NCBI GenBank assembly: GCA_000004695.1
Contig: CM000154.2
Coordinates: 1,568,001 to 1,632,000, forward strand
Source: Dictyostelium discoideum
Taxonomy: Eukaryota
Reading direction: 5' to 3'
Length of the DNA: 64,000 bases
Shown: in pieces, positions 6,125 to 32,265 of the stretch
Position numbering within the stretch: the stretch's first letter is position 1
Layout of the letters: each line of letters opens with the position of its first letter
Position numbers and translations under genes: made by a program
Notes under the pieces: generated by a model
The model's input: the letters and a program-made list of their open reading frames with translations, nothing else
Told to the model about the DNA's origin: nothing
Database searches by the model: none

Positions 6125-7345
6125 GACAACATATCCAATTGGAAATGAATTATTTAGTAGAGATATGTTAACAATTCATACATTATTTAATTTAATTGGT
6201 TCATTAAATCAATCTTCAATTGATAGTAAATTTAAAGAAAGATTAGTTGATATAATCAAAGGTAAATCTGGATCAATTTTATCGGTTGATCCATTTTCAT
6301 TATTCATTGTTTTAGTTTCAATATTGGGTACACCAACAAATCAAGATGTTGAAATCATTACAACTTTGGTTTTAAATTTATTCATTACTCAATTTTATTT
6401 AACAAATTTATATTTAGAAAAAGGTATTAATTTATTAATTAAATTATTGTTTAATATAATTTATAAAACAACTAACATATTTCATAATATTATTTTTTTT
6501 TTTTTTTTTTTTTTCATTAAATTTTAGAAATTAATAAAAAACAAGTTAAATCAATATCACAAATTTTTCAACAAACATATACAGCAGCATCAACATCAAC
6601 ATTAAGAATGAAATATGAAGATAGATTAAAGAAAGTTATGGAACCATTAGCAAGATGTTTGTACATTGCATATCAATTCTTACAACCACCTCAAATTAGT
6701 GGTGATGGTATAAACTATATAAACAGAGAAGACCTTACCAATAAGGAAAAGATTTACTCAAGATTAGGTATAAATTCAATGGAAGAAATAGTCAATAGAG
6801 CATTATTTAACAATCCATACTTGAGTCAATGGTTATCACAAATGGAGAGTAAGAAAGTGGATCCATTCTTTATTGTAGAATATAGACGTCCAAAATTCAT
6901 AACACTTCCAGAGAGTTTTGAAGACTTTTTCGTTTCAAGTGCCCAAAGAGAATGTATGAATTGTAAGACTAAACCAGAGTTTTCTGCAGTTTGCTTACTT
7001 TGTAATCAATTGGTATGCTCTCATAGGAGCGAATGTTGTAATGATGATGATAAACATTATAACATATCCGAAGGCTATAAACATACTTTGAAATGTGGCA
7101 GTTTTAAGGTTGGTTTCTTTTTAGAAACTAAAGCTCCTCGAATCGATATCCTACGTGATCATAGAAAGAGTATTTTTAATAATGGTTACCTCGATCAATA
7201 TGGTGAATCCGATCCAACTTTGGATCGTGGTAAACCATTATTAAGAAATGATAATAACTTTCAAGATCTTTGGAATTGTTGGATTACTCATTCAATTGAG
7301 GATCGTTTCCTTTCAAACTCAACACTTTCTTCTAGAACTTTTTAA
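1035..7345 (+). CDS. UBR-box N-recognin E3 ubiquitin ligase (UBR1/UBR2-like). Proposed CDS join(1035..1401,1516..6423,6528..7345).
   Basis: Exon 1 ends ...VCCSR then GTATGT. Exon 2 continues VWGSSYE...YRCKTCALSPNSSICFECFKAGPHEREKHDYSMSFASYGGSCDCGSLDSWKRSGFCSEHE. This matches the UBR box of human UBR1 ([31 protein letters not shown]...GGFCDCGD..W...GFC..HE). Splice phases are consistent (114-bp and 104-bp AT-rich introns). The last exon carries the C-terminal Cys-rich UBR autoinhibitory region (CMNCKTKPEFSAVCLLCNQLVCSHRSECC). It also has long poly-N/Q/T/S tracts typical of Dictyostelium. Confidence 0.85.
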
Positions 7346-7484: not shown

Positions 7485-7885
7485 TATTTTTTTTTTTTAA
7501 AAAATAGTTAATTAAAAAAAATATAAAGAAGAATATCCAAAATCACCAAAAACCCACCCATAAAAAAAAACATATGAGCTAACCTATTAAAGCTCGAAAT
7601 TTATTCATATATCTTGAAAAATAATATTCTTTTTTTTGATAGTCAAATGATGGGGTTGTGCAAAAAAAAAAAAAAATAAAAAAAATAAAAAATAAAAAAT
7701 ATCTTCATCAAATGTTTTATTAGAATTATTATTTTAAAATCTTTTTTTCCCACATTAAACTTCACATTCGCACTTAAAAAAACTAAACAATGTCCACCTT
7801 TATTTTAATTTTTTTTTTTTTTTTTTTTTAACTTCACTATTTAAACTTTAATTTTATTATAATTATTTAATAAAGTTTCAAAAAA

Positions 7886-10800
7886 ATGAAGTATTCAAGT
7901 TTTTTATTACTTTTTATATATATATTTTTTATTTTAAATAATGTAACTTTTTAAATTTGGACTTTAAAAAATAAAAAATAAAATTAATATAGGATTTATT
8001 AATAGTTTAATAATTATTTTAATTAGATAAATGCTCAATCATGTCCATCTACTAGTTCAACATGGAGACCAACAATGGCATCATTTGTAACACCAACATC
8101 TCCATCAATTGCAACAATTCAACCACAATTAGACTTTTTATTAGGTAAAAATAATTTGGTTTTTATGGGTCAATATGGTTACTCTGCAACTTCGATTACT
8201 GATGGTCCAACAGGTGTAGCAAATTCATTCACTATGAATTATGATACTTGGGGTCCAGCAATGCATTGGTTGGTTGTAAAGACACCTGTTCCCGCTCTTA
8301 AAGCAAATCAAAACTATGAATTTAGTTTTGGTTTTAAATTGGGTCAAGTTTTAGGTAGCTATAATAAAATTGCAAGTATTTCAGTAAACTTTTTTAATCC
8401 AGCCGATATTACAGATCCAAATGGAGGAAGTCAATATTTTGTAACTCCAGCACACCCAGCAGTATATAGTAAAACCGTTACCACTGGTTCGTGGACTTCA
8501 TCTACAACATTTGCCCAAAACATCATTACTCTTACACCTACTGTTGATATTGGTTTATCAATAATGGCAATTCAAATTACTCGTACCTCCCAAACTGGTC
8601 CAGCTATTACCACTATGTTTGTTAGTAACATGAAATTATCAATTCCATCCAGAACCGTTCCAGCTCCACCAACCAACTTAATTACCAAAGATTCCGAATT
8701 AATTGCTATTCCAAAACCATTATCAAGTCTTGATGCTCAAGATTCAACAACATGTCCATACTTAGCAACCGATTTAGTTCACTGGCACGACCCAACAATT
8801 TGGACTAGTGGTGTTGTACCATTACCATCAACTTCATCAAACATTATCATACCAGCAGGTAAAAAAGTTTTAATCTCACCATGCTCAATCAACCAAACCG
8901 GTATTTATCAAAAAATTACTATCCCAGCAACTTCTGAATTAATATTTGCAGATGCAAGCTTAACAATGAATATTCAAGATATTTATGTCCAAGGTAAATT
9001 TATCATGGGTACAACTAAATGTCGTTACAATGCCAATATTAATATTGTATTCAATGGTGCAATGACAACTGTTGATACAATTGCTCAATATTTTGGTTCA
9101 AAAGGTATTGCTGTTGCTTCAGGTGGTTTTATAAGTGTTCATGGTAGACAATACCATAATACTTGGACTAAATTGGCTGCCACTGCTTGGTCTGGTGATA
9201 ATGTTATCTATATTCAAGATGATGTTAATTGGATTGTTGGACAACAAGTTGTAGTTGCAACAAGTGTTTATCAAGATGAGAAATATCCAGAGAATGAAGT
9301 AATGACAATTGCTGCCATCCAAGGAAAAGTTATACAATTCACTGAACCACTTAAATACTATCATTATGGTGGTCAAGAATATCAAGCTGAAGTCGCTCTC
9401 CTAACAAGAAATATCGTTTTCCAAAGTGAGTCTTCATCTGCTGCTTCATCATTTGGTGGTCATGTTCTTGTAAGTGGTGAAGGTCAGTTTGCTGGTATTC
9501 AACTCATTCGTATGGGTCAAAGAAACATAAAAGGTCGTTATCCATTACATTTCCACATGGCAAACACAGTTAGCAAATCCTACATTTCTGATTGTTCAGT
9601 AGTCAGTAGTTATTATCGTTGTTACACAATTCATGCCACTAATAATGTAACTGTTACAAGAAATGTTGCATTTGATGTAAATGGACATTGTTATTATTTA
9701 GAAGATGGTGTTGAAATGGATAACACTCTTTCATTCAACTTTGCTTCATATGTTCATACGATTGGAACTCCAGCAGCAGGATATAATCAATATGGTCAAG
9801 ATTTTACCCAATCATCTTCACTTGCACAACCAGCTGATGTTGCTGCTGGTGGTTTCTATATTACAAACGCATGGAATTCATTTATTGGTAATGCAGCAAG
9901 TGGTGGTTGGGCAGGTTTTTCATTCCCAAACTTAGACGCACCAATTGGTAATTCAATTAATGTTCCAATCGTTCCAAAACAATTCACAACTAAAGTTTTC
10001 CAAGGTAATACAGCACATTCAAGTGGATACTTTTTTGAATTTGGTTCATCCATTTATGTAGGAGGCGATTTATCAACAGGATCAGATGGTTTATTGGTTT
10101 ATAATAGTGGTAGAATTTCAAGAGAAACCTATTTAAATGGTGTTGAATCTGGAGGTGAAATTTGGATGAGATTTAACAATACAAAAGTTTATCTTTCCAA
10201 TAGGGGTATTGGTATGTGGGGTGAACGTGTTGAAGTTATTTTATTAGAAAGTCATGACTCCATTCGTCCAGGTTCATTATTTGGTGAAGCATGGTTATCA
10301 GATGCAATTGTAAATGGTCAAACTGGTAATTTATTGTCTAAAACCACTGATTATTCAAGACAAGGTTTCCAATTTTATGATACTTATGTAAAGACAATTT
10401 TAACCAATATCATTTTCAGAAACTTTGTTCATAATCCATTATCAACAAGTCCAGAAGATGACAATAGAGTGATCATCAGTATGACCCATTCCGATGAATT
10501 TAAACCACAATTTATCTCTGCTACAAAGAATATTACCATTCAAGGTACAGCTGTCTCTCAATATATTGGACATCGTATTTTTGATACTGGTTCAAGTCGT
10601 CAATTTAATTTTGTAGATTATGACGGTACCATTTCAGGTAGAAGTGTTCCAACTATTTTTGGCGCACATGATAAATGGTGGCAATTCGATAACACTTGTA
10701 CATACAATAACGATTGGAATTCTTGGGTTTGTAATAAGGGTACTTATGAAGTTGCAAGTGTATCTGTTGAAGTACCAGGCTATATGGATCGTTCAGGTGA

Positions 10801-11329
10801 ATATGATGCAACATCCAATGTCGGTTATATTTATTTATTCGGTAGTGGAATTACAGATTCAAGAAGAATGAATGTAACAAGAAATGTTGGTATCACTGGT
10901 ATTTCTGACTTTGGATGGTATTTATATTGGACTGTAGGTACACCAAGTTATATTAAACTTTGGTTATCAGAAGTTCCATATGGCCACTATGTTTTCTTTG
11001 CAATTCCATACCCAGCAAGTACAACCTTTAAAGTTTCATGTGAATATAAATATAACTCTCAACATTCTTATAATTTCACACAAGCCACATCAGCCGCTGC
11101 AGTTAGAAGTGGTGATGGTAAGAAATATTATTTCAATGGTACTCATCTTTTTGTTAAAGTTATCAACTTTGTCTTAAATGGAAGTGAATACTTTAGTCGT
11201 GGAGGTGCCAAAATCAATGATGTATATTGGGAGTTCATTGTTCACATTACAGCAACCAATACCGTAAAACCACCTGTAAATGGATTTTATACTGGTTTAA
11301 CAGATGTATTACCTTCAAGTACACTTTAA
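7886..11329 (+). CDS. Secreted G8-domain / right-handed beta-helix protein (CEMIP/KIAA1199-TMEM2-like). Proposed CDS join(7886..7942,8027..11329).
   Basis: The G8 consensus region is CPYLATDLVHWHDPTIWTSGVVPLPSTSSNIIIPAGKKVLISPC...IFADASLTMNIQDIYVQGKFIMGTTKCRY. It is followed by the beta-helix block with GRYPLHFHMANTVSKSYISDCSVVSSYYRCYTIHATNNVTVTRNVAFDVNGHCYYLEDGVEMDNTLSFN, whose GRYPIHFH motif is typical of the CEMIP/TMEM2 family. A 19-codon upstream mini-exon (MKYSSFLLLFIYIFFILNN, a signal peptide) ends at GTAACT. It joins in phase 0 to an AG acceptor at 8025-8026, giving ...NN|INAQSCPSTSSTWRPTMASF. The mini-exon and splice are inferred only. Confidence 0.7.
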
Positions 11330-14463: not shown

Positions 14464-15167
14464 TTATTTTTTTAAAATTGATAAAACTGATTTAGTAGCT
14501 CTAAATAAATTTAAAGATTTGATTGTTGATTGAGAGATTTGTTGTCTTCTTTGAAATGCACCAAGTACAGCAGAGGTTGAATAAGTACGATCATATTTTC
14601 TAATACCAGCATTATCGACAGAAGATAAATAGAAAGAACCTGGGAACATATTTGTAGTTTCATCAGATGGTACATAATTTTTAAGATTATGTCTAGTTTC
14701 ACGAAGTGATAATTTCTCTGTGAAAATCTCTGGTTCAACACGAACTCTTTTAGCTAAACGATTCTTTAAATCAACTTTTTCAACGATATGATTAATTGGT
14801 TTTTCAACTTTGAATGAGAATGCAGATGCAGCCAAACCAGAACCATATGAAAAGGTTAATACTCTCTTACCAACTAAATCATTTGATTTTTCATCAAGTA
14901 ATGATAAAAGTCCAGAATAGGTTGAACCACAATAAGTATTACCCAATTGTTTGGCTAATAAAGTGGTTGGTGCAACCTTGGTAGCATAATCATTCTTGGT
15001 GATTGCTGACAATGCTTTTTCAAGTACACTATCGAAATAAGTATCTTCTGGTTTAACATTCTTATAAGCTTCCAATGATGCATATCTTGAATCATTTGGA
15101 TTATTTAAAAAGTCATTATATAACTAAATAAATAAATAAAAAAATAAATAAATAAATTTAGTTAATA

Positions 15168-15199
<32 letters not shown>

Positions 15200-16009
15200 T
15201 TTTTTTTTTTTAATATTTACCATTCTACCAAATGATTTTTGAACCAATTTATTGTATGGTGAATGGAAAAGAGCAAAATCAACTTGATCGAGTGAGAAAG
15301 ATTTACCATATTTCTTTTCAAAGGCTTTGGCATAACGATTGTAACAATTATCGATAGCTCTGAAATAGCAAGAGATTGAGAGTTTACCATCGACACGTGG
15401 ATATTCGGAATCCATATCTGGTTTATAGAAATCGTAGACATTTTCCATATGGACACCACGAAGACCAGATTCAAAGGTGATTGGTGCATTTGGACCAATT
15501 AACATTGCAACAACACCTGCACCACCAGTTGGACGAGCTGGACCTTTTTCATAGACTGCGATATCACCAGCGACAACAATAGCATTACGGCCATCCCAAT
15601 AGGAGGATTCCATCCATTGGAGTGCATTATGGAGTGCAGATGTACCACCATAGCAAGCGTTAATAGTGTCAATACCATCGATTGAAGTATTTCCATGTTT
15701 GGCAAAGAGATCCATTAAAACGGTTTTAACTGATTTGGATTTATCAATAACAGTTTCAGTACCGACTTCAAGACGACCAATTGAGTTTGGATCAACATTG
15801 AATTTATCCATTAAATTATTGACTGCATTTAATGAGAGCGAGTAGATATCTTCTCTGTCACCACAGAATGCCATATTAGTTTGACCGAGACCTAATGTGT
15901 ATTTACCTTGGCTGACACCATCGAATTTTTCTAAATCTTCTTGTGCGACATAAGTACTTGGGAAGTAAACTTCAATTCCGTGGATACCGATATTTTCTGG
16001 TTTTGTCAT
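14464..16009 (-). CDS. Hydroxymethylglutaryl-CoA synthase. CDS complement(join(15221..16009,14464..15123)).
   Basis: Exon 1 ([43 protein letters not shown]...[18 protein letters not shown]...[16 protein letters not shown]) ends at GTAAAT. After a 97-bp intron, exon 2 begins [31 protein letters not shown]... (compare human HMGCS1 ...KSLARM|LLNDFLNDQN...). Splice phase is 0/0. Dictyostelium has two paralogs (hgsA/hgsB); which one this is cannot be decided from sequence alone. Confidence 0.9.
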
Positions 16010-16891
16010 TTTAAAATTATTCTTTTTTTTTTTTTTTTTTTAAAAAAATTATTGATTGTTTGATTTTTTTTTTTTTTTTAATAAATAAAATTATGTAAAA
16101 TATTGGAAAATAAATAATAATAATAAATTTTTTTTTTTTTTTTTAATTTAAATTAAATTTAATTTTTTTTTTTTAAATATATATAAATATATAAAATACA
16201 AATGTTTAAGAAATAATATATCAAGTCGAAAAAGTTAATTGAACAAGATATAAATTAAGTTTTTTTTAATAATTAAAGATTGTCGAGATTAAATTGAACA
16301 ATTTTTATAATAAAAAAAAAAAAAAGGAGTGTTAAATGACAAAAAAAAAAAAAATTATTTTTTGTATTAGAAGGGTGGTGTGGTGATATACTAAATGTGA
16401 AGTGTCGGAAGTTTTTTTAAACAAAAAAGAGATAACTAGAAAAAGTAACAAGAATTATAATTTTTAGGTTATAATTTATTAGTATACTTTTGAATTAAAT
16501 TATTTCTATTAATGTGTGTGTGAATACTTGTTGGTAGTGATGAGGAAAAAAAAAAAAAAATGAAAAATAATTTAGTTTAAATATCGGTCGAATGAGCAAA
16601 GAAAAAAAAAAAAAAATTATGAAAATAATAATTTTATAAAAAATAATTATTTTTTAAAAAAAAATAAAAAAAATTAAAAATAAATAAAAAATATCTTCAT
16701 CAACCCAATTGTTTTCTTCACTCATAGGAGCTGGTTTTTCTATTTTTTAAAGTTTTTATTGGGGCCACAATGACGATCAGTAGGGCTGGGTGGGTTTCCA
16801 TTTTTTTAAAAAAAAAAAAAAAAAAAAAATTTTAAAAATAAAATTAAAAAAAATTAAAATATGAATTTACCACCAATCCCAATCCCAAAAT

Positions 16892-16934
<43 letters not shown>

Positions 16935-17840
16935 TTTTAAAAATGAGTGTGCACAAAAAAAAAAAAAATAATTATAAAAAAAAGTGTTTAGAAAAAAAAA
17001 AAAAAAATAATAAAAAAAAAAAAAAAAATAATAGGTTATATTTACATACCTATTATGGATTGGTACAATATTTAATGTTCAATTAAAAATTGAAGGAATA
17101 GTTTTTTTTTTAATATTTTATTTTAAATTAAATAATTAATTTTTTTTTAAAAAAATTAAAAAAAAAATATAAAAAAAATTAAAAATAAATTCCAACTTAA
17201 AAAAAATAAAAAAAAAATTTATTGGATAATTAAATTTTAAATAATAAAAATTTCAATCAAAGTAGTGGTTAAATAATGGGACCTAAAAATGTAAATAAGG
17301 TTGAATAATATTTTATATTTTTTAATATGAAAATAAGATAAGATTTTCCCCCTTTTTCATTTCAAATCACCAACAAAAGTCTAAATTTGAAAAAAGAATA
17401 AATAAAAAAAACAAATAGATATTGAAAAAAAAAAAAGAAAAAAAAAAACTAAAAAAAAAAAATATCAAAAGATTCAACTTTTTTTTTTTTTTTTTTTTTA
17501 ATATCCAATAACCGACTAGATTCTATTTTATTTTTATTTTTTTTTTTATTTTTTTTCATATGAAAAAAACAAAACATTTCAGATAATTTGTCTTTTTCAT
17601 TTGTGAAAATAAAGAAAAAAAAAAAAAAACTTTAATTAAAGCTAATAAAGGTTTTTTTTCACTTTATCCAAGGTATATATGCCACATATTAAAAATTTTT
17701 TTTTTTTTATAACAACAATATTGTTATCGGTTTATGAATTTAAATATACAATTTTTTTTATTTTTTATTTTTTGTCTTTTTTTTTCTTTTTCTTTTCTTT
17801 CTTTTCTTCTTTTATAGATTATTTTTATAAATTTTTGTAA

Positions 17841-20757: not shown

Positions 20758-20797
<40 letters not shown>

Positions 20798-21055
20798 TAA
20801 TAAATCTTTGTACTTTAATGGAGATAGATAATTATTAATAAGTTTATTTATGGATTTTTAAGTTTTTTTTTTTTTAAATACCAGTAAAGTTAAATAAATC
20901 GATTTTTGATTATTTAAAAGAAGATGGTATTTTTTTTTTTTTTTTTTTTTTTAATATTGGATTAACAAGATTGATATATGTCCATCTGTGTTAATACGAG
21001 TTTTTATTTAATATTTATTTATAGGCTTATCATTTAAGCTGAAGGGTTATTTTAA

Positions 21056-22587
21056 TCATATGAATTGATCAAAAGATATAATATTTGGGAGAGATGATTC
21101 TGGAATACAATAGTAATTAGCTGTTGTTTTTCTTAGCTTAATCGTTGAGGTGAGAAGGATCTTAGGATCTTTGAAATTATTATGGTCTTTTGCTGATAAG
21201 TTTTTCAGATCTTTTGCTTTTTTGATGTATTCTAGAGTGGCCAATTTGTGCCATTTCTTTAGAAGGGAGCTGTATGATAATGATTCATTTGTTAAAGGAT
21301 CTTCACTGTATATTTGATTGCAAATCCAAATCCAAATGTTGTGGAGGATAAGGGCCATTAGGTTTCTATATGCGAATGATCTGGTTAGATCATAGTCTAT
21401 TGCTTTATAGTTCCATTCAAAGTATTCTTTGTGGAATCTGTGGTTGGCGTAATCTGCATTCACTTCTTGATCTTTTTTGGCTGTCGGTGATAATTTTGGA
21501 GTTATTCTATTAATGAAATTGTTATTTTGCCTAATTCTTGTATGATGCCAGTTTTTACCTTTGCCTGTGGTAATATAGATGAAATTTTTGAGTTTATTTA
21601 TTTTTATGAATTGTTTTGTTTTCTTGCATGAGAAGAACAGGTGACCGTATGGGTCTTTGCTCATATCTTCTTTGCAGAGTGGGCATTGTTTGTTGTGAAG
21701 GTAGTTTATTGGAAGGCATCTGGCATGGAATCTAAACATTGTGTCTCTTGTTTTAGGGTCTTTTATCTTCAGTATGTTGTTGAAGAGTTGATTATAGCTG
21801 TAGCCTCTTAAGTTTAGAGATGATTGGAATTCCGTTTTAGGGATGGTTGGATTTTGGTCTTGAATTGTGGTATACCATTCTGCCAGTGAAAGTGGTTGTC
21901 CATTTTCGTTTTTTATGGATGTGAGATTATTGTTGAAGATTGCTTTTTTGATTCTTATTTTGTTCCATTCGTCTAAGTTTTCTTTTAGGTATCTGGATGT
22001 GAATTTGTTTTTTTGGATTTGATATTCCCAGCTTTTGTGATGAGATGAGTTTGTTTGTTTGGTTTCTAGTGCTAGGATGAATTGGTTTATGATCCAAAGT
22101 TTCTGCGCCAGTTGTCTCAATTCTATATTCCAAATGTTCCAGCCCCCTACTTTTAGTGGGTATCTTGCTCTTTTGGTTCTCATTAAATTAATAACTTGAA
22201 ATCCACTAGCATTTTTGTTGTTTGGTGCCGATAAAAACCATTCGACTAATTTATTGATTTGGTTTAATTCCTCTTCCTTAAAGTTCTCTACATATGAATA
22301 GTAGGTTAATTTAGAGAGTGCGAATGCTTTGAGGATGTTGGTTTTGGTTTTGATTGTTGAGTCAGTGGTTTTCCATAGTACTAAGGATGATCTTATTGTG
22401 TTTAATATTTCTGGCATTTTTCTTGTTATCCCTTTGCCTGTGAAGAAGTATCCCAAGTATCTTTCTGGATTTGTAGATATTGGAATTCTTTGGTTGGTAT
22501 TGTCTGGGTTGCCTATAAGAATTGATGAAGATTTGTCGATGTTTAGTTTTGAGGAAGTGGCTTTGCAAAATGAATTGAAGTGTTGTA
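21056..22587 (-). CDS. Retrotransposon ORF2, C-terminal portion (the N-terminal endonuclease/RT core is presumably lost in the gap)
   Basis: The frame is open from the gap edge: ...QHFNSFCKATSSKLNIDKSSSILIGNPDNTNQRIPISTNPERYLGYFFTGKG...CPLCKEDMSKDPYGHLFFSCKK.... It lies downstream of ORF1, as is typical for a LINE. Confidence 0.65.
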
Positions 22588-22687
22588 NNNNNNNNNNNNN
22601 NNNNNNNNNNNNNNNNNNNNNNNNNNNNNNNNNNNNNNNNNNNNNNNNNNNNNNNNNNNNNNNNNNNNNNNNNNNNNNNNNNNNNNN
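22588..22687. other. Assembly gap (100 N)
   Basis: Run of exactly 100 n inside the retrotransposon. Confidence 1.
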
Positions 22688-23769
22688 TGGTTGACTTCAT
22701 TGTTTGACTGGATTTCCTCGTTCTTGCGTTTATGTGATGGAGGGATGTTTAGTGTCTTCTCTCTGTTTTCCGAGGATGAATGGATGTTAGTGCTTGTTTT
22801 GTTGGCATTGTCTTTTTGGATGGCGTTGGATGTTGTGGTAGTGGTTGTGGTGGGTTTGACAGATTGAGATTCTGCTGGGTTTTTGGGGGGAAGAGGTTGA
22901 GATGACTTTTTTGCTTGGGCTTTTTTCTCTTGTGTTGATTGTTTATCAGACTGATTGTTTGCTGGGTTGTTTGTTTGTTGTTGTGGTTTTGGTTGAGAGG
23001 ATTTGATTGCTATCCTGTTTTGGGTGTTAGGAGGATCTGTCATCTCATCTTCTAATGGTTCCTCCGTGTTGTTTGTCTCTACTTTCTTGTTTTTCTTTTG
23101 TGAGGAGTAGGTTTTGGTGGCCGTTCTGATGGTAAAGTTTGCGATTTCTGTAATGTGTTGGCCAGATTTCATTTGATCGCCTATTTTGCATTCTATTAGA
23201 CCGAATACTATGAGGTGGTCGGTGGAGTATATAGTATTGTATATTGCATAGGGTATTTCTTCTGCAAAGGCAGTTTTGATGAGGGCGTCCACTATTCCTG
23301 CCTTTTCTCTGGGAATTCTTACTCTTCCTGTGAGGACGTGGAAGTCTCTACTGGAGGTGATGAAGGTTCCCAATTTGCTTCTATCTCTAATGATATTTAG
23401 GAGAGATTGTTCGTTTTTAATCATCAGGTGGATCATTTTTCTAGTTCCTTTGCCTATGTATATCTTGTCGATTGGGATATCGTAGTTTGAGAGTGTTTTT
23501 CTCATTTCTTCTAACCCCTTGAGATCCATTTTGGGGAATTCGAGTGTAATTGGGTAGAATCCGTTGTTCTTCTCGTAGGTTGAGAGCGCAGTCATGTTCA
23601 ATATGGTCTCGCAGTATTTGGAGATGTCTTTGAGGCCTATTGATAGTTTGGGGTAGGTCTCCTTTATCTCTGCTGTTTTTGTGGAGAATTCCTTAATGAA
23701 GTTCTCCGATGCCTCGTCCATATGGGTGGAGGGGTTGGCCATTTTAGCCGCGTCTGCGTAGGAATTCAT
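22688..23769 (-). CDS. Retrotransposon ORF1 (the frame stays open into the assembly gap)
   Basis: The ORF starts MNSYADAAKMANPSTHMDEASENFIKEF...HVLTGRVRIPREKAGIVDALIKT..., followed by a low-complexity Q/T/K-rich tail. It runs into the Ns at 22687. Confidence 0.65.
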
Positions 23770-24073
23770 CTCGATGGGATTCCTTTGAATCGGCGATTTG
23801 GTAAGTTAGATCTGTAGATCGTGGTGGATTGGTGATTTTTTTTGAAAGATTGGTTAAAATTGACCGAGATTAAGGATAGAAAAGGATGAATTACTTTTCA
23901 CGTGTATCTTGTATCCTCTTGATCGCGGTACGGGTTTTTTAAGATGGTATTGATCTATATCAAATAGTCTTCTGATTGTTTGTAATATGGTGAAATAATA
24001 AACAAAATTTGGTTACGCAGTTGTTTTAATAAGGAATCGATCATGTATACTTAGGTATGGTCCTATAAAATTT

Positions 24074-24146
24074 CGCCTAGACATGGGATCGAACCATGGA
24101 CCTAGCGGTTAACAGCCGCTCGCTCTGCCTACTGAGCCATCCAGGC
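24074..24146 (-). tRNA. tRNA-Asn (anticodon GTT), 73 nt
   Basis: The minus-strand sequence is GCCTGGATGGCTCAGTAGGCAGAGCGAGCGGCTGTTAACCGCTAGGTCCATGGTTCGATCCCATGTCTAGGCG. The 7-bp acceptor stem pairs (one G-U). The anticodon loop is CT-GTT-AA. The T-arm is CCATGG-TTCGATC-CCATG, which includes the B-box GGTTCGATCC. A T4 terminator follows directly 3'. Confidence 0.95.
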
Positions 24147-24197
24147 ATTTTTATATTTTTTTATAAATTTAGCTCCTTCTGATTTTTGATAAAGAAA

Positions 24198-24333: not shown

Positions 24334-24348
24334 TTTTTGATAAAGAAA

Positions 24349-24440
24349 TGTATACGGCCATACTAGGTTGGAAACACATCATCCCGTTCGATCTGATAAT
24401 TAAATCGACCTCAGGCCTTCCAAGTCCAATTCAAAAAAAA
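24349..24440 (+). pseudogene. 5S rRNA retropseudogene fragment (5' ~75 nt of 5S rRNA) with oligo(A), flanked by the TSD
   Basis: tGTATACGGCCATACTAGGTTGGAAACACATCATCCCGTTCGATCTGATAATTAAATCGACCTCAGGCCTTCCAAGT carries the universal 5S features (GGCCATAC...CCCGTTCGATCTG...) and matches the Dictyostelium 5S 5' half as I remember it. It then breaks off (ccaattc) into A8 plus the TSD. Confidence 0.7.
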
Positions 24441-24461
24441 TTTTTGATAAAGAAAATTTAA

Positions 24462-24660: not shown

Positions 24661-24892
24661 TAATAAACATTGCACAAATTAGCTAGAATTTAAAAAAGAG
24701 AAAATTAAAAACTAACTCTTGAACGGACCAGAGAAATTTTAAATATCCAAATGAATTCCTTAAACAAATAAATAAATTAAGAAAATTTGTTTGAAAAGTT
24801 TATTGTATTCCAGAATAAGTGTTTCCAAGCATAGTATCCTTCGAGCAATTTAATAATTACAACTTATTATTGAATTTGTTTATTCAGAGGGT

Positions 24893-25020
24893 ATGTTGCC
24901 ATCATATAGAATAGTTCTGGATACTACTTCAATCACCATTACAAAGAGAGTAGGTGATAATGGATCTCCCTGTTTTACTCCTCTTTTTATAGTAAAGGGG
25001 GGTGTGGGTTTTCCATTGAT
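24893..25020 (-). pseudogene. Non-LTR retrotransposon reverse-transcriptase fragment
   Basis: The minus-strand translation PFTIKRGVKQGDPLSPTLFVMVIEVVSRTILYDGNIPSE* contains the LINE RT motif (compare L1 [23 protein letters not shown]). It is truncated on both sides. Confidence 0.65.
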
Positions 25021-25136
25021 TTTTATCCTGGTTTGAGTCTGTCAGTGGTTTCATAATTAGGTTTGTTAGGTTGGTGAGAACTTTGATATGTTGAAGCGTT
25101 CTAAGTATTGATTTGGAAAGAGTTATTTATCTCTGA

Positions 25137-25190
25137 TTTTTTTTTTTTTTTTAATATTATAAAATCAGTGTTTATCCATTAAAGGAAATA
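25137..25190. repeat. Left copy of ~45-bp inverted repeat: T16 TAATATTATAAAATCAGTGTTTATCCATT
   Basis: The reverse complement matches 29476-29525 (AATGGATAAACACTGATTAAACAATATTAA A15) at ~33 of 38 positions, plus the homopolymer tail. Confidence 0.7.
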
Positions 25191-25379
25191 AACATTAAAT
25201 AATAGTTTTATTTATGAATTTTAATTTAAAAAATAAAGTGGTTATTCTTTTTTAATTTGAGTTATCAAAGAGTTTTAATTTTAAAATGAAGTGTAGTTAA
25301 AATTGGTTTTGTGAATTGTTCGATTGGGGTTAGATATAATTTCAGTTATTTTTTTTATTTTTTTTTATTTTAGTTTATG

Positions 25380-25613
25380 ATAATGAAAAGAGAGAATGAA
25401 TGTATAGAAAATGGAGAAAAAAGAAATAATGTAAATTCATTTAATAGAATCATTAAGCTAACAGTAACTGATGGTATTGAATATAGTGAATTATTATTTT
25501 GGAAGATATTTAGAAATATAGTGACAATAAAATAATAATGTCAATTATTTCTTTTTTATTTCCAAGATATATTTTCGCAATTTTTTTATAATTTCTTTTT
25601 ATTTTTTAATTTT

Positions 25614-25650
<37 letters not shown>

Positions 25651-25790
25651 CATGTATTAATAATAATGACCAATCAGATTCAGCATCTCCTTCAATTACC
25701 ATTCAAGATATTGAAACATTTATAAAAATAACACCAAAAGAAAAATTAAAATCAACATTAGAAACCCAATAAATTCCAACTTTAATAATA
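25380..25790 (+). pseudogene. Partial upstream duplicate (pseudogene) of the 5' part of the 26285 gene
   Basis: 25375-25525 is ~95% identical to 26275-26425 (MKRENECIENGEKRNNVNSFNRIIKLTVTDGIEYSELLFWKIFRNIVTIK* versus the intact MKRENECKENGEKRNN...). 25660-25790 matches 27290-27415 (DQSDSASPSITIQDIETFIKITPKEKLKSTL). The copy is internally deleted and stop-containing. Confidence 0.8.
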
Positions 25791-25964
25791 ATTATCATTA
25801 TTAATAAGTTATAAAAAAAAAAAAAGGCGCTCTTTTGAATAATCAAAAAATGAAATGAATTATTATTATTATTATTATTATTAATAAGTTATAAAAAAAA
25901 ACAATGGGAGAGGGGTGATTTTTACTTTTTTTTGTTTATTTAATTATTTAATTATTTAATTATT

Positions 25965-26125
25965 TATCTATTAATTTGCATCCATATTAATTTCAGCAGT
26001 CATATTAATTTCAGCAGCCATATTAATTTGCAACCATATTAATTTCAGCAGGCTAAAATAAATATGACTATTAAGTTGCAGCCATATTAATTTCAGCAGC
26101 CATATTAATTTGTAACCATATTAAT
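25965..26125. repeat. Minisatellite: ~7 tandem units with core CATATTAATTT(CAGCAGC)
   Basis: catattaatttcagcagt catattaatttcagcagc catattaatttgcaac catattaatttcagcagg...catattaatttcagcagc catattaatttgtaac catattaatttt. It is GC-containing, unlike the surrounding DNA, and lies 150-320 bp upstream of the 26285 ATG. Confidence 0.85.
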
Positions 26126-26284
26126 TTTGGCATGGGACATTCAGTGCGAAAAAAAAAAATAAAAAAAAAAATAAAAAAATGAATAAAAAAATAAATAAAA
26201 AAATAAAAAAATAAAAAAATAAAATAAAAAATAGTATATTGCAACGTAATAAACTATTTTTTTTATTTATTTTAGTTTATAATA

Positions 26285-27059
26285 ATGAAAAGAGAGAATG
26301 AATGTAAAGAAAATGGGGAAAAAAGAAATAATGTAAATTCATTTAATAAAATCATTAAGCTAACAGTAACTGATGGTATTGAATATAGTGAATTATTATT
26401 TTGGAAGATATTTAGAAATATAGTGATCAATAAAATAATAATGTCATTCATGGATAAACGATTTACACCAAAATATAAAACAATTTCAGATGGAGCTGAA
26501 ATGATTCGAAATAATCAATTCAGTCTATTAAAAGATAAAATTAAAATAAATTGCAGATATTTACATTTTTATGACAAAAAAGGTTGTGAGATTGAAATTT
26601 TAAATAAATTATTCAAAACAATCATTAGCGATAATGAATTTTACAGAAAATTCTTTAGAAATCACCTTTTTGAATTTACTAATAGAAAAGTAATCATTTC
26701 ATTAATTACATCAAAGAATTTACAAGTATATCAAATATTTATAGAAGAGTTTAATCATATACCAACTGTTTATGATCTAAAAATAGCAATTTCAGTTGGT
26801 GCTAACAAATTCATTAGATATCTATTAGAACAATCACAACTAGAACAATCAAAATTTAAAATAAACATATCAAAAGATGATTTAGATAATTATAATTCAA
26901 TTGATACAATAGTTGCTCCAAATAAAGTTATTTCAAATTTAAGAAAAATTATTTTAAAAAATTCTTCTAAATTTTTTTTTCCATTTAAATTATTAAATTT
27001 AAAGAGAGATATGTTTAAAGGATTACTATGCTATTTTAATTGTTATCAAAGTTTAAGAG

Positions 27060-27155
<96 letters not shown>

Positions 27156-27770
27156 TTCAAGAACTAACGATTGATACTCTTTTGAGTATTCATTCGAATA
27201 GAGAAAATGAGTTGATAATAAAATCAACATCAACAATAAAATCACTAATTAGAGTTTGTATATTAATATTAAAATTAAAAGCAATGACGAAAACAAACGA
27301 CCAATCAGATTCAGCATCTCCTTCAATTACCATTCAAGATATTGAAACATTTATAAAAATAACACCAAAAGAAAAATTAAAATCAACATTAGGAAACCCA
27401 ATAAATTTCAACTTTAATAATAATGTCAAGTATGATGATGATGGTGATGATGAACAACGTTTTTCTAAATTAATAACATACCAAATTAAAGAATATAATA
27501 GTAATAGAAATAGAATACCACGGAAAGTATTCTATAAATCAAAAAGTGGTCAAATGGTTCAATTAATTTGTAAACATTGTGGAGATTCAAGCTTTACAAC
27601 ATTTTGTTCTTTTTTACTTCATTATCGATACGATCATTCTCGTATGGATTTTCCACAGTTTGAAGACGCCGAAGAAGTTAGTATTAATCCCGGTGGCGAG
27701 CTTGAAATATTATTATATACACCCGATTTAGACAGTAGTTTTTTCAAAAGATTTAATAAACAATCAGAAG

Positions 27771-27863
<93 letters not shown>

Positions 27864-29321
27864 GTTGTAGGTCTAATGATGATGATGATGAACATAAAAC
27901 CTTTATAAAGAAATTATTGGATGAATATTATTCAATATTTTGTAAAGATAGATCAGCCATTATATATTATTATTATTACGATGGATTTAATAATATCAAT
28001 TTAGAAAATAAAAGTTTATACAGTGTAGATTTAAAAGAATATTATGAATCATTTAGATTTGGAATTCCAACATTTGACTTGGTTGGTCATTTTCTTTATG
28101 ACCACCTTAATTTTATATCATTGATAGATATCATGAGATATCCAGATAAAAAGTCAATTTATATTTTATTCTCAAATTGTACAGATAGATTAAAAAAGAT
28201 TCAGTTTATAGATAAAACCATTCAATCAATAAAATCAAATGGTTTACGAAATGTTGAAAACCAATTAACGAATTTCTTTTATATGGTTGTCATGCACGAC
28301 GATTTAGAATTAATAAAGTATTTTTTCAAACAAATAAATGGTTATCAATTACATTTGGGTGGTGGGGGTGGAGATTTACATTACTTATATATGTTTAACC
28401 CAACAATTTATATTGGTTCGGTAGATGTTTTAAATTATTTATTTGAAAATCATAGAGAATATTTTATTGATGATAATTATAACTATTATTCCTATTTCAA
28501 GAATTTAAAATTATTAAAACACTTTGAAGCATTAACACTCAAAGTTCCATCAACATTAAGAATTTGTGAATACTTGGACCACTATACCAGAGGTGATAAT
28601 TTTCAAAATTATATATCACATATCATCAGAAACCGTTTGTATTTGAGTATTGATTTGATTGAATCAATTTTTTGTTTCTCTCCAAAGAATACATTATTCT
28701 CAACCAATTCTCTTCAATCTACAACTATTAATTTTAAAACATACAAACTATTAGCAAACATCTTTTTTTCACAAAAAAAACGCAGAACAATAAAAATTTG
28801 GCCATCACTTTACCAAAGATTTTTTAAACTTTTTAGATTGGATGTTTACAAATCATTTTAATAAAATGAAAAAAGGAGCAAGGTTTTTTAATTCGGATAA
28901 ACAGTTACAACTATTTCTTTTTCTAACTAACAGATTAAACATTGGTGACATTATTGATTTCGATGAACTTAGATTCATTGTTAATGATATTGAATTTTCA
29001 CCTAATATTCACCATTTGTTAGATTTGATGTTAAAAAATGTTAAAAATAATGAAATCTTTTTAAGGGTTCTAGAAATTGCTATTGTTAATTCAAGATTAC
29101 ATATTTTAGAATTTGTTAATGAAAACAGTGGCAACCTTTTAAAAGAAATAAAGAATCTTGGCGAACGATTTGATGTTTTTCTATATCGCGTATTTGAAGG
29201 TGATAATGTAAGGGTATCAGAATTTCTACTTCAATTTATCAACCAAGTAGATTCAGAAAAATTATTTGGTCCAAAATCATTATTATATATTTCAAATAAA
29301 TTAAAATCTTTAAATAAATAA
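26285..29321 (+). CDS. Orphan paralog-family protein (member A), apparently frameshifted: an 858-aa ORF plus a 159-aa ORF overlapping by 20 nt in different frames
   Basis: The N-terminus motif SELLFWKIFRNIV resembles EILFWKVYRNVY of the 1246-aa protein at 43473..47213. The C-terminal ORF (…RLHILEFVNENSGNLLKE…) resembles the C-terminus of that paralog (…RFKMLEILNENGFIKKD…). So the two ORFs are one gene broken at ~28842-28861 by a -1 frameshift or a sequencing error. It contains a C-x2-C...H-x4-H element (LICKHCGDSSFTTFCSFLLHYRYDH) and poly-N tracts. Confidence 0.55.
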
Positions 29322-29475
29322 ATAAATAAAAAAATTTAAAATAAAAATATTAACTGGGTTTAGAAAAAAAATAATTAAAAAATATATTATTAAGCAATTT
29401 CAAGTTGATCTGTGTAATCATTGATGCAGAATGGTCTGCAAAACTTTGGAACTTTTATCTTTGATCACTATCATT

Positions 29476-29525
29476 TAGTTTAAATGGATAAACACTGATT
29501 AAACAATATTAAAAAAAAAAAAAAA
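29476..29525. repeat. Right copy of the inverted repeat (a TIR candidate, or an inverted copy of a retroelement 3' stub)
   Basis: See the left copy. The similarity stops abruptly internal to CCATT on both sides. Confidence 0.7.
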
Positions 29526-30389
29526 TAACCATTCTCAAAAAAAAAAAAAAAAAGTGGTTAATTATTATTTTTTTTTTTTTTAATTTTGAAATTTTTTTAT
29601 TTGTTTTCAATATATTTTTTTTTTACTTCAAAACATAAAAATTCTCTTTAAAAATGGAAAGTAGTATTTCTAAAAAAAAAATTAAAGTTTTTGATGTAAG
29701 TAATCAGATTTTAAAAAAAAAAAAAAAAATATTAAGATTTCAAGATTCTAAGTGTAAAAAAAAAAAAAAAAAAAATAGTCTTATCATTTACATTCTAGAA
29801 CTGGTCAGAGATTTGTTTTTGCTACATTTTTTATTTTTATCTTTGATTATTTTAAAAAATAATCGAAATCATGTTTAAAAAAAAAAATCAAAAGTTAAAA
29901 AAAAAAAAATAAGAAAAAAAGGAAATAAAAGTAGTCCAAAATAAAAGAAATATTAAAAAAAAAAAAAAAAAAATAACAAATCAAATTTTAAACGAGATTT
30001 TTTAAATCATAAGGAAAATATTTTAAAATAAACATGATAGAATAAAAAACATATTTTTAAGACAGGGGATAGGTATCGAGCTACAATTATCTCTTTTATA
30101 TCTCTTTCACCCACTTTTTTTTTTTTTTTTTTTTGTTTTTTTTTTTATATTATTTTTTTTTTTTTTTTTTTTTTTTAATGAACCAGTTATTATAATATAC
30201 ACTTTTTATAAATAACTTTTATTAAAAAGAGTAATTTAATTATTTTTTAAATTTTATTTAATTTTTTTTTTTTTTTTGGATAAAATAAAAAAAAAAAAAT
30301 AAAAATTGACAATATAAAAAAGAATTTTTTTTTTTTTTACAATTATTTGTATTTAATAATAATTAAAATAAAAAAACAAAAAATTAGAA

Positions 30390-31422: not shown

Positions 31423-32265
31423 ATGTCAACAATGTATGCACGAGAATATGCTGGAAATCCAATTAAACCAGATGTTAATATCTTTCAAAATAAATCATTT
31501 AAACAAGGTGAAAAACCAAAAAAGTTGGATGAAGATTATTTCCTCTACTCGTTGAAATCTCTTTTCAAAGATAATTTGAATGAATATCCAGGTAAACAAT
31601 TAGACAGACCAAACAAACTCGATATTACCGCCGCCGATGATAGAGAATTGAATTTTCTTGAAGAGAAGAAATGGGATGAGAAAGAACTCCTTAAAGAACA
31701 ACGTGCTGAAACATTCAAGAATTTCACCTTCCCACCACATATGTCAATCCAAGAGAAATGCGTAGACCAATTGCAACAAGATTACGACGATTTCCATATG
31801 CTTTGCTTAAGAGATATGTTCCGTGATAAAGAATGTGATTTGGAAGGATTTAGTCGTACACCAGCTCAAGATAAAGATGAACTTAAAGAAATGAATCTTA
31901 CTCATGAATCATTACTAAAGGAGAAATCCAAACTTCCATTAAAGAAACAACAACAAAATAAATCCTCAAATAAAATCAATGGTAAATTAAATAAAAAGAA
32001 AATCTCACCAAATCAAAAGAGAACAATTATCCGTCAAACTAAAACTACAACAACAAGAATTTTTAAAAAACCAATCTCCTCAATGGAACCAATTACAAAA
32101 ACTGAAATAACCTCAAAAACTATTACTAGACCTGTAACTGAAATTCCTTCTAATGATCCAAAATCAAAACCAAAATTATCAACTCAAACAAGTTATTCTG
32201 TCGACCTTTCACACTTAAATAATAACTCTTGGGTTTGGGATAATGGTGAAACTAGAAAATTATAA
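31423..32265 (+). CDS. Hypothetical protein, 280 aa, charged/low-complexity
   Basis: Single [24 protein letters not shown]...[11 protein letters not shown] with typical codon usage. No family recognised. Confidence 0.5.

Follow-up and report, generated by a model that had tools for sequence, protein, structure and literature searches.

The locus and its inverted repeat

We analysed a 64-kb window of Dictyostelium discoideum AX4 chromosome 5, hereafter the window, to which all coordinates refer unless another locus is named. A block of 4.4 kb in the window is bracketed by an inverted repeat with homopolymer tails and contains a gene of a repeated family, partial copies upstream of this gene, and a minisatellite; all three were found as an earlier, sequence-only reading of this DNA had claimed (Table 1). 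To the left of the block lie a tRNA-Asn gene and a TRE3-type tRNA gene-targeted retroelement (TRE), which belongs to the retrotransposons without long terminal repeats (non-LTR). The two arms of the repeat are very probably the tail stubs of TRE3-like elements, and the block an insertion acquired in the AX4 lineage from a paralogous gene array about 90 kb away.

The inverted repeat was confirmed: when one gap is allowed in the homopolymer, 40 of the 43 aligned positions pair. The left arm consists of T16 (25137-25152) followed by AATATTATAAAATCAGTGTTTATCCATT (25153-25180), and the right arm of AATGGATAAACACTGATTAAACAATATT (29483-29510) followed by A15 (29511-29525). The differences are limited to three mismatches, where the left arm has ATAA and the right arm GTTT. 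The 18-mer AATCAGTGTTTATCCATT is present in exactly two copies in the window, one per strand, and is the sole exact inverted 18-mer in the 64 kb with at least four G/C outside simple repeats. Five of 30 block shuffles produced one such match; the 18-mer core alone is weak evidence against chance and only suggestive. Chance is untenable for the repeat because the adjoining AATATT and the homopolymer extend it and both copies are conserved in other genomes. A metagenome scan for the 18-mer returned 21 chance matches, none of which was extended by AATATTA-poly(A). The string AATATTA12 occurs seven times in the window (0.02 expected) and was rejected as a family signature; it is not diagnostic, three of the occurrences being intron starts or A-rich spacers. 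The proposed target-site duplication (TSD) immediately outside the arms did not hold up, as TTATCTCTGA (25127-25136) and TAACCATTCT (29526-29535) agree at only four of ten positions.

For comparison we used 10 loci from eight genomes (about 270 kb), and copies of the arm motif were counted in these loci. Orthologous loci were fetched with a conserved neighbour, the open reading frame (ORF) at 31423-32265 (280 amino acids, aa), which is DDB_G0288489 of AX4. The target locus is represented in an independent AX4-like assembly, GCA_054883475.1 (L001), in D. discoideum ACTFIR (L006) and ACTFIW (L007), and in D. cf. discoideum ACTFIY (L002) and ACTFIZ (L008); L003 and L005 are loci of D. citrinum and D. 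firmibasis. Two array loci lie on the same chromosome as the target: L009 in ACTFIW, 67-77 kb upstream of it, and L010 in the assembly of L001, 83-93 kb upstream. L001 matches the window over 19.6 kb at 99.5% identity and shares its structure, which rules out an assembly artefact as the origin of the block.

Table 1. Features of the window discussed in the text (RT, reverse transcriptase; UTR, untranslated region; TRF, Tandem Repeats Finder).
Feature	Position	Strand	Evidence or remarks
AX4-lineage-specific insertion, 4,591 bp	24885-29475	+	empty sites L006, L007, L002; donor L010
Proximal half of resident TRE3-like stub	24693-24884	+	tblastn and empty sites
RT fragment part A (…SILRTLQHIKV…GVKQGDPLSPTLF…), left insert end	24885-25136	-	translation, tblastn
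Left arm, TRE3-like 3' stub	25137-25285	-	L010 and L008 matches
Partial copy of family gene	25355-25793	+	first 47 codons and a 32-codon internal piece, T-rich spacer between
18/34-nt minisatellite (TATTAATTTCAGCAGCCA)	25969-26127		TRF
Family gene copy	26285-29321	+	ORFs, paralogues
RT fragment part B (…KFQSFADHSASMITQ, YxDD-box region), right insert end	29385-29475	-	tblastn, L010
Right arm, distal end of resident stub (last part of 3'UTR and A15)	29476-29525	+	orthologous sites
tRNA-Asn (GTT)	24073-24147	-	ARAGORN; Rfam RF00005, 64.3 bits
TRE3-type non-LTR retrotransposon	20940-24000, 5' boundary approximate	-	ORFs and 3' end

The right arm and the insertion boundaries

The block is missing from four D. 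discoideum-group strains (ACTFIR, ACTFIW, ACTFIY and ACTFIZ) and also from D. firmibasis, D. citrinum and D. dimigraforme. ACTFIR, ACTFIW and ACTFIY carry a single copy of the arm motif at the site, in the orientation of the right arm and with the same right-hand flank. This copy ends an unbroken stub, ...AAAGTTTATTGTATTCCAGAATAAGTGTTTCCAAGCA...GATTTGTTTATTTAGTTTTAAATGGATAAACACTGATTAAACAATATTA-A15, which extends from the C-terminal codons of ORF2 through the 3' untranslated region (3'UTR); the counterpart of window 24693-24884 runs directly into ...TTTAAATGGATAAACACTGATTAAACAATATTA-A15. In the window, 24693-24851 holds 53 decayed ORF2 C-terminal codons with stops (...KVYCIPE*VFPSIVSFEQF), and the first part of the 3'UTR follows to 24884. 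The decayed codons are 47% identical over 53 aa to the ORF2 C-terminus of the TRE3-type element in the window, YYCIPESSLPNIISFDQFI (tblastn, E = 8.5e-10). Given the collinear stub in the empty sites and the ORF2 match, the right arm represents the last 3'UTR bases and the tail of an old TRE3-like stub. These alignments place the right arm outside the insert and mark it as ancestral at the locus. Every D. discoideum-group strain examined has this stub, hereafter the resident stub, in the interval from tRNA-Asn to the neighbouring gene.

The insertion and its boundaries can be read directly from the empty sites. With junctions marked by a slash, the empty site of ACTFIW reads GTTTATT/TAGTTTTAAATGG, the left junction of the window GTTTATT/CAGAGGGTATG… (GTTTATT/CAGAGGG…) and the right junction …GATCACTATCATT/TAGTTTAAATGG. 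Insert and target overlap by 3 bp, ATT, and comparison with the empty sites revealed no TSD at these true junctions, only this microhomology. Within the resident stub, the insertion site falls in the 3'UTR and precedes the AATGG motif by 8 nt. The similarity between the arms does end abruptly on the inner side, as had been noted from the window. The end is sharp in the right arm because the insertion junction cuts the stub at this point; the continuation of the stub is displaced to 24693-24884.

The insert contains an RT fragment, the left-arm stub, the partial gene copy, the minisatellite and the frameshifted gene. The appearance of a block bracketed by inverted repeats arose because an insert with the left-arm stub entered the resident stub. 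Two other assignments of the flanking DNA were rejected. One read 24795-24853 as minus-strand RT coding sequence (KLLEGYYAWK…), with the arm encoding LISVYPFK after a YADD box; tblastn instead gives the plus-strand ORF2 C-terminus. The other read 29385-29472 as a plus-strand ORF2 C-terminus (…FIFDHYHLV*), a match that does not stand out from shuffled sequence (z = 0.2), and the donor described below shows minus-strand RT with FADH.

The left arm and the identity of both stubs

The left arm lies 252 bp inside the insert. Its stub comprises the A16 tail on the minus strand (25137-25152), the terminal 29 nt (25153-25181) and about 100 nt of further 3'UTR. Window 25132-25285 is 89% identical to L008 6637-6787 of ACTFIZ (shuffle z = 21), and because of this homologue the left arm is recognised as a TRE3-like 3' stub of about 150 nt rather than 45 nt. 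The L008 homologue lies downstream of tRNA-Asn and about 95 nt from a same-strand TRE3 ORF2 remnant (E = 3e-20). Beyond the arm, the 3'UTRs of the left-arm and resident stubs remain similar for about another 40 nt (z = 3.1, 9 of 1000 shuffles). The counterpart of these 40 nt in the resident stub is displaced to 24846-24884 in the window, which is why the similarity seems to stop abruptly.

By sequence, both arms are the 3' terminus, that is, the last ~29 nt of the 3'UTR and the poly(A) tail, of TRE3-like elements, and represent two separate insertions. TRE elements carry a terminal poly(A) tail and are concentrated near tRNA genes, TRE5 integrating about 50 bp upstream and TRE3 about 100 bp downstream of these genes; at least one TRE is present at 61% of the tRNA genes in D. 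discoideum (PMC5006619). The tails are A16 in the left arm and A15 in the right, with A14, A15 or A18 in homologues and A23 in the TRE3-type element of the window. Five tailed termini at the target locus have ...TTAAWCMAATATTA(n) in common. The 3'UTR adjoins codons or remnants of ORF2, which encodes the protein with apurinic endonuclease (APE), RT and zinc-finger parts and is homologous to that of the window TRE3-type element; this was seen in the resident stub itself and, for the left arm, through its L008 homologue. As in the TRE3 family (TRE3-A to TRE3-D; PMC5006619), the stubs are grouped with other TRE fragments near a tRNA gene. The canonical position about 100 bp downstream of the tRNA gene is occupied by neither arm of the window, only by the ACTFIZ homologue. 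The arms are thus TRE3-like by sequence, with their copies displaced. Both stubs, unlike the known family members, are short and degenerate.

A pair of arm-type stubs was also observed in L008, where 6641-6790 and 7960-8000 lie in inverted orientation about 1.3 kb apart and flank tRNA-Asn, with no gene block between them. Inverted tail pairs can therefore arise without mobile cargo.

The donor array and the permuted insert

The source region is directly visible in the array loci. L009 contains tandem paralogues 87-94% identical to the window gene, with gene 2 at 90-94%, and a left-arm-type stub follows immediately after gene 2. The gene copy in L010 is decayed; its identity to the window gene reaches 97%. 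The 3' flank of this gene (L010 16342-16532) is 93% identical to window 29282-29478, and is followed at once by the counterpart of window 24885-25330 (about 96-97% identity, two indels excluded). RT part B is joined here to RT part A (L010 16530-16790, again ~96-97% identical outside indels), after which come T14 and an identical left-arm core; on the coding strand, part B comes immediately after part A. This core, at L010 16790-16830, includes the private ATAA variant; the left arm shares ATAA with the donor and does not have the GTTT of the right arm. The left arm thus existed in the donor before the insertion. L010 has two copies of the arm motif, both in the same orientation. Units related to the minisatellite adjoin the donor stub (L010 ~17090-17230, by sequence and BLAST), and homology to L010 ends near window position 25331.

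In the donor, the two insert ends lie side by side. At L010 16520-16537 the last bases of the insert, …GATCACTATCATT (…CACTATCATT), directly abut its first bases, CAGAGGGT…, with nothing in between, and the RT reading frame runs through this point uninterrupted. A single tblastn alignment to TRE ORF2 spans the junction, from QGDTLSPTLF to FADHSASM at the YxDD box (E = 1.2e-12). The continuous RT in L010 indicates that the donor arrangement is the original one and that the window copy is circularly permuted, with its RT split between 24885-25136 and 29385-29475. RT part A on its own matches TRE ORF2 of L003 (tblastn, E = 2.6e-13), and a separate alignment gave 50% identity over 68 aa (E = 2.7e-18). 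A homologous-protein search with the 71-aa RT fragment returned no candidates. The opposed orientations of the two arms had also been considered as the result of twin priming of a single TRE or of an inversion; this was rejected in view of the donor arrangement. The insertion is duplicative and array-derived, and it entered the 3'UTR of a retroelement stub.

Origin of the block

The sequence-only reading had offered two interpretations of the repeat. According to one, the arms are the terminal inverted repeats (TIRs) of an undescribed DNA transposon that mobilised the 4.4-kb block as cargo. A 45-nt inverted repeat does bracket a gene-containing block, and the block is indeed a strain-specific insertion, but the insert ends at 24885 and 29475 differ from the arms, one of which is internal and the other external to the insert, and the right arm is present at the empty site in three strains. 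There is no TSD, either next to the arms or at the true junctions; the homopolymers share the inverted orientation of the arms, which is what poly(A) tails would show; and a Pfam search of the gene and its paralogues detected neither a transposase nor an integrase domain. Nor were paired copies at a similar spacing found among the loci examined: the motif is single in L002, L006, L007 and L009, the two copies in L010 have the same orientation, and the inverted pair in L008 encloses the tRNA gene and not a gene block. Compared by structural features rather than by published terminal sequences, the block resembles the Dictyostelium TIR transposons Tdd-4, DDT-A/B/S and thug only superficially, in having an inverted repeat around a few kilobases; its arms are not at the ends of mobile DNA. 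We regard a transposon origin as hardly credible. The other interpretation, two opposed poly(A) 3' stubs that happen to flank the block, was right about the retroelement identity. Its lengths of about 45 bp must be revised to about 150 nt for the left stub and at least about 240 nt for the right one before the insertion split it. The flanking is also not a matter of chance, since the left stub came inside the inserted DNA and the right stub is the structure that received it.

Two further explanations concern the direction and timing of events. If the block were ancestral at this site and had been deleted in the other strains, the arms would be remnants of one old structure, and the 3-bp ATT microhomology could have mediated a deletion equally well. 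However, the supposedly deleted state is an intact, collinear retroelement 3' end, which a random deletion would not recreate; the array locus has, in one uninterrupted frame, the RT fragment that is split between the insert ends; and the four strains without the block are joined by three other species. A deletion is therefore very unlikely. It is still harder to believe that fold-back repair or a similar process generated the left arm from the right one, in inverted form, as the block was inserted. The nearly equal homopolymer lengths (16 and 15) would fit such an event, but the identical core with ATAA, its T-run and the adjoining RT fragment already exist at L010 16790-16830, and more distant relatives of the left arm are found in L009, L010 and L008.

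How the array unit reached the target is a separate matter, and the arms have no mechanistic role in any of the routes considered. The abutting ends suggest a circular DNA intermediate as the simplest route to the permuted insertion, which we put forward tentatively, as something short of an even call. A TRE3-like stub had by then become part of the array spacer, adjoining the RT fragment. A segment of the array may have left, or been copied, as an extrachromosomal circle, which popped out of the array or formed when a fragment closed on itself; the position near 25331, where homology to L010 ends, is a candidate for the circle junction. The circle would have opened once, inside the RT fragment, and the opened circle would have been joined to a break in the resident stub via the 3-bp ATT microhomology. 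The complete scenario, in which an array unit was relocated over about 90 kb as a circle into retroelement debris beside a tRNA gene, is possible, but we would not call it likely.

Origin and boundaries would be the same without a circle, if a unit-length linear fragment from two adjacent array units had been captured at a double-strand break, or if replication had switched into the array and back by microhomology-mediated break-induced replication (MMBIR) or fork stalling and template switching (FoSTeS). This, too, is a serious possibility that we rate at somewhat less than even. Junction microhomology of 3 bp is typical of end joining or template switching, and the repeated units and partial copies in the array could provide two equivalent breakpoints. 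Against this, a linear copy needs both ends at the same nucleotide phase of two units, since the ends abut exactly in the donor, whereas a single opening of a circle explains the abutting ends without coincidence; moreover, the current donor region has only one RT-containing unit.

Several observations weigh against the account of TRE3-like stubs and an array-derived, circle-borne insert. The resident stub now lies upstream of tRNA-Asn, unlike a canonical TRE3, and no tRNA gene was found within 10 kb of the array stubs. The TRE3-like assignment was made by comparison with the TRE3-type element of the window and does not extend to one of the subfamilies TRE3-A to TRE3-D. Similarity of the inner flanks of the arms to the 3'UTR of this element is not significant by shuffling (z = 1.2 and 0.2), and the extended 3'UTR kinship between the stubs is modestly supported (z about 3). 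The census of arm copies covers the 10 loci rather than the whole genome. At only 93-97% identity to the insert, and with deletions, the present donor may be a sister of the unit from which the insert was really derived. Finally, a unit-length linear fragment or template switching would leave identical junctions.

Serial translocation through circular intermediates is reportedly known in cattle. Insertion-based duplications in the human genome convert a donor order A-B into a copy B-A via extrachromosomal circular DNA (eccDNA) (Takahashi and Innan 2020, PMC7188851; also PMC7450558). As in those duplications, the ends of our insert are adjacent in the donor and the copy is permuted, the source stays in place, and the junctions have microhomology only. 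The present event differs in being small (4.6 kb) and intrachromosomal, at a distance of about 90 kb, and in having as its source a tandem-like gene array, from which homologous pop-out is possible; the circle is deduced here from the junctions, with a present donor that is only 93-97% identical. The permuted insertion of an array unit is thus a new example of an already known kind of rearrangement.

If the circular route is correct, it would be a way to disperse gene-family members in a compact genome without a transposon, and the locus would be a natural example, resolved at the sequence level, of a Dictyostelium gene relocated through a circle, the retroelement graveyards at tRNA genes serving as landing pads that tolerate insertion. 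At the target locus, wild isolates differ in structure from the AX4 reference. A pattern of TIRs plus cargo in an AT-rich genome has here been resolved as two poly(A) retroelement stubs, and homopolymers that are inverted together with the arms of a repeat point to retroelement tails and not to transposon ends.

The family gene and its relatives

The gene in the insert is assigned by its sequence relatives to a Dictyostelium-specific family with proteins of roughly 900-1000 aa. Relative to the intact gene 1 of L009 (L009 4947-7898), it is frameshifted near 28803-28861. It is probably a pseudogene or has a homopolymer sequencing error common to both assemblies. The 913-aa product annotated in GCA_054883475.1 implies 295 nt of intron sequence, which apparently bridges the frame break. 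Two perfect (AAT)31 tracts of about 94 nt each (27060-27153 and 27771-27863) encode poly-Asn runs. The two pieces of the partial copy (25355-25543 and 25665-25793) are 96-97% identical to 26257-26426 and 27296-27398 of the window; the copy is 95-98% identical to gene 1 of L009.

Pfam gave no matches for the window gene. In the paralogues the only domain detected was of Rho_N type, above the cut-off in P0008, below threshold in P0005 and absent from P0001 and L009 gene 1. With the 858-aa ORF as query, a word-indexed protein search returned no relatives other than paralogues at 31-43% identity. An exhaustive search of representative sequences with the same query returned closer relatives, with 83-95% identity over partial stretches; the poly-Asn tracts appear to have swamped the word-indexed search, so that these relatives were missed. 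They include ACTFIW_012402 (83% identical over the matched stretch) and two small AX4 ORFs, DDB_G0288445 (95%) and DDB_G0288409 (87%), again over the matched stretches. Exact look-up of the 858-aa ORF and of the reconstructed 913-aa product gave no match.

In L010, the family members at 8087-11080 and 15052-16375 are fragmented into several short ORFs in the annotation (including ORFs of 183, 292, 140 and 113 aa). The donor array is therefore decaying in the AX4 lineage, and DDB_G0288445 and DDB_G0288409 are short ORFs that match family fragments.

The tRNA-Asn gene and surrounding retroelements

The tRNA-Asn gene, a usual landmark for the integration of TRE elements, is conserved in L001, L002, L006, L007 and L008. 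The TRE3-type element downstream of it has ORF1 and a partial ORF2 and ends in ...GTTAATCCAATATTA-A23. It is not present in ACTFIR, ACTFIW or ACTFIY and is therefore a polymorphic insertion. An assembly gap (Ns) at about 22590-22700 lies inside this near full-length element. A further tailed stub, ...TTATTAATATTA-A40, was noted at 20760-20870. Several short poly(A) insertions lie upstream of tRNA-Asn and have in common a repeated 15-nt target about 50 bp from the tRNA.

One of the sequences in this region, at 24350-24440 on the plus strand, consists of the first ~84 nt of 5S rRNA followed by CCAATTC and A8 (Rfam RF00001, 36.4 bits, E = 1.5e-4, slightly below the gathering score). The direct repeats TTTTTGATAAAGAAA at 24183-24197, 24336-24350 and 24441-24455 flank this piece, which lies about 50 bp upstream of tRNA-Asn, the target distance of TRE5-type elements. 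It looks like a chimeric 5S/TRE retro-copy made by template switching. A different insertion in ACTFIR (L006 7530-7672) likewise ends ...TCCAATTC-A11 and has its own TSD. A single tRNA gene thus documents polymorphic TRE insertions, a possible chimeric 5S rRNA retro-copy and a strain-specific relocation of an array gene with the signature of circular permutation.

The tRNA-Asn gene is found at the syntenic position but on the opposite strand, compared with the D. discoideum group, in D. citrinum (L003 3795-3867) and D. firmibasis (L005 7005-7079). If the plus orientation is ancestral, the resident stub would have begun as a TRE3 insertion in the canonical downstream position. A diverged, partial tRNA-like 5' half on the minus strand lies between tRNA-Asn and the resident stub at L006 ~7715-7755 and L007 7780-7841, which suggests an old partial duplication of the tRNA-Asn gene in wild D. 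discoideum strains.

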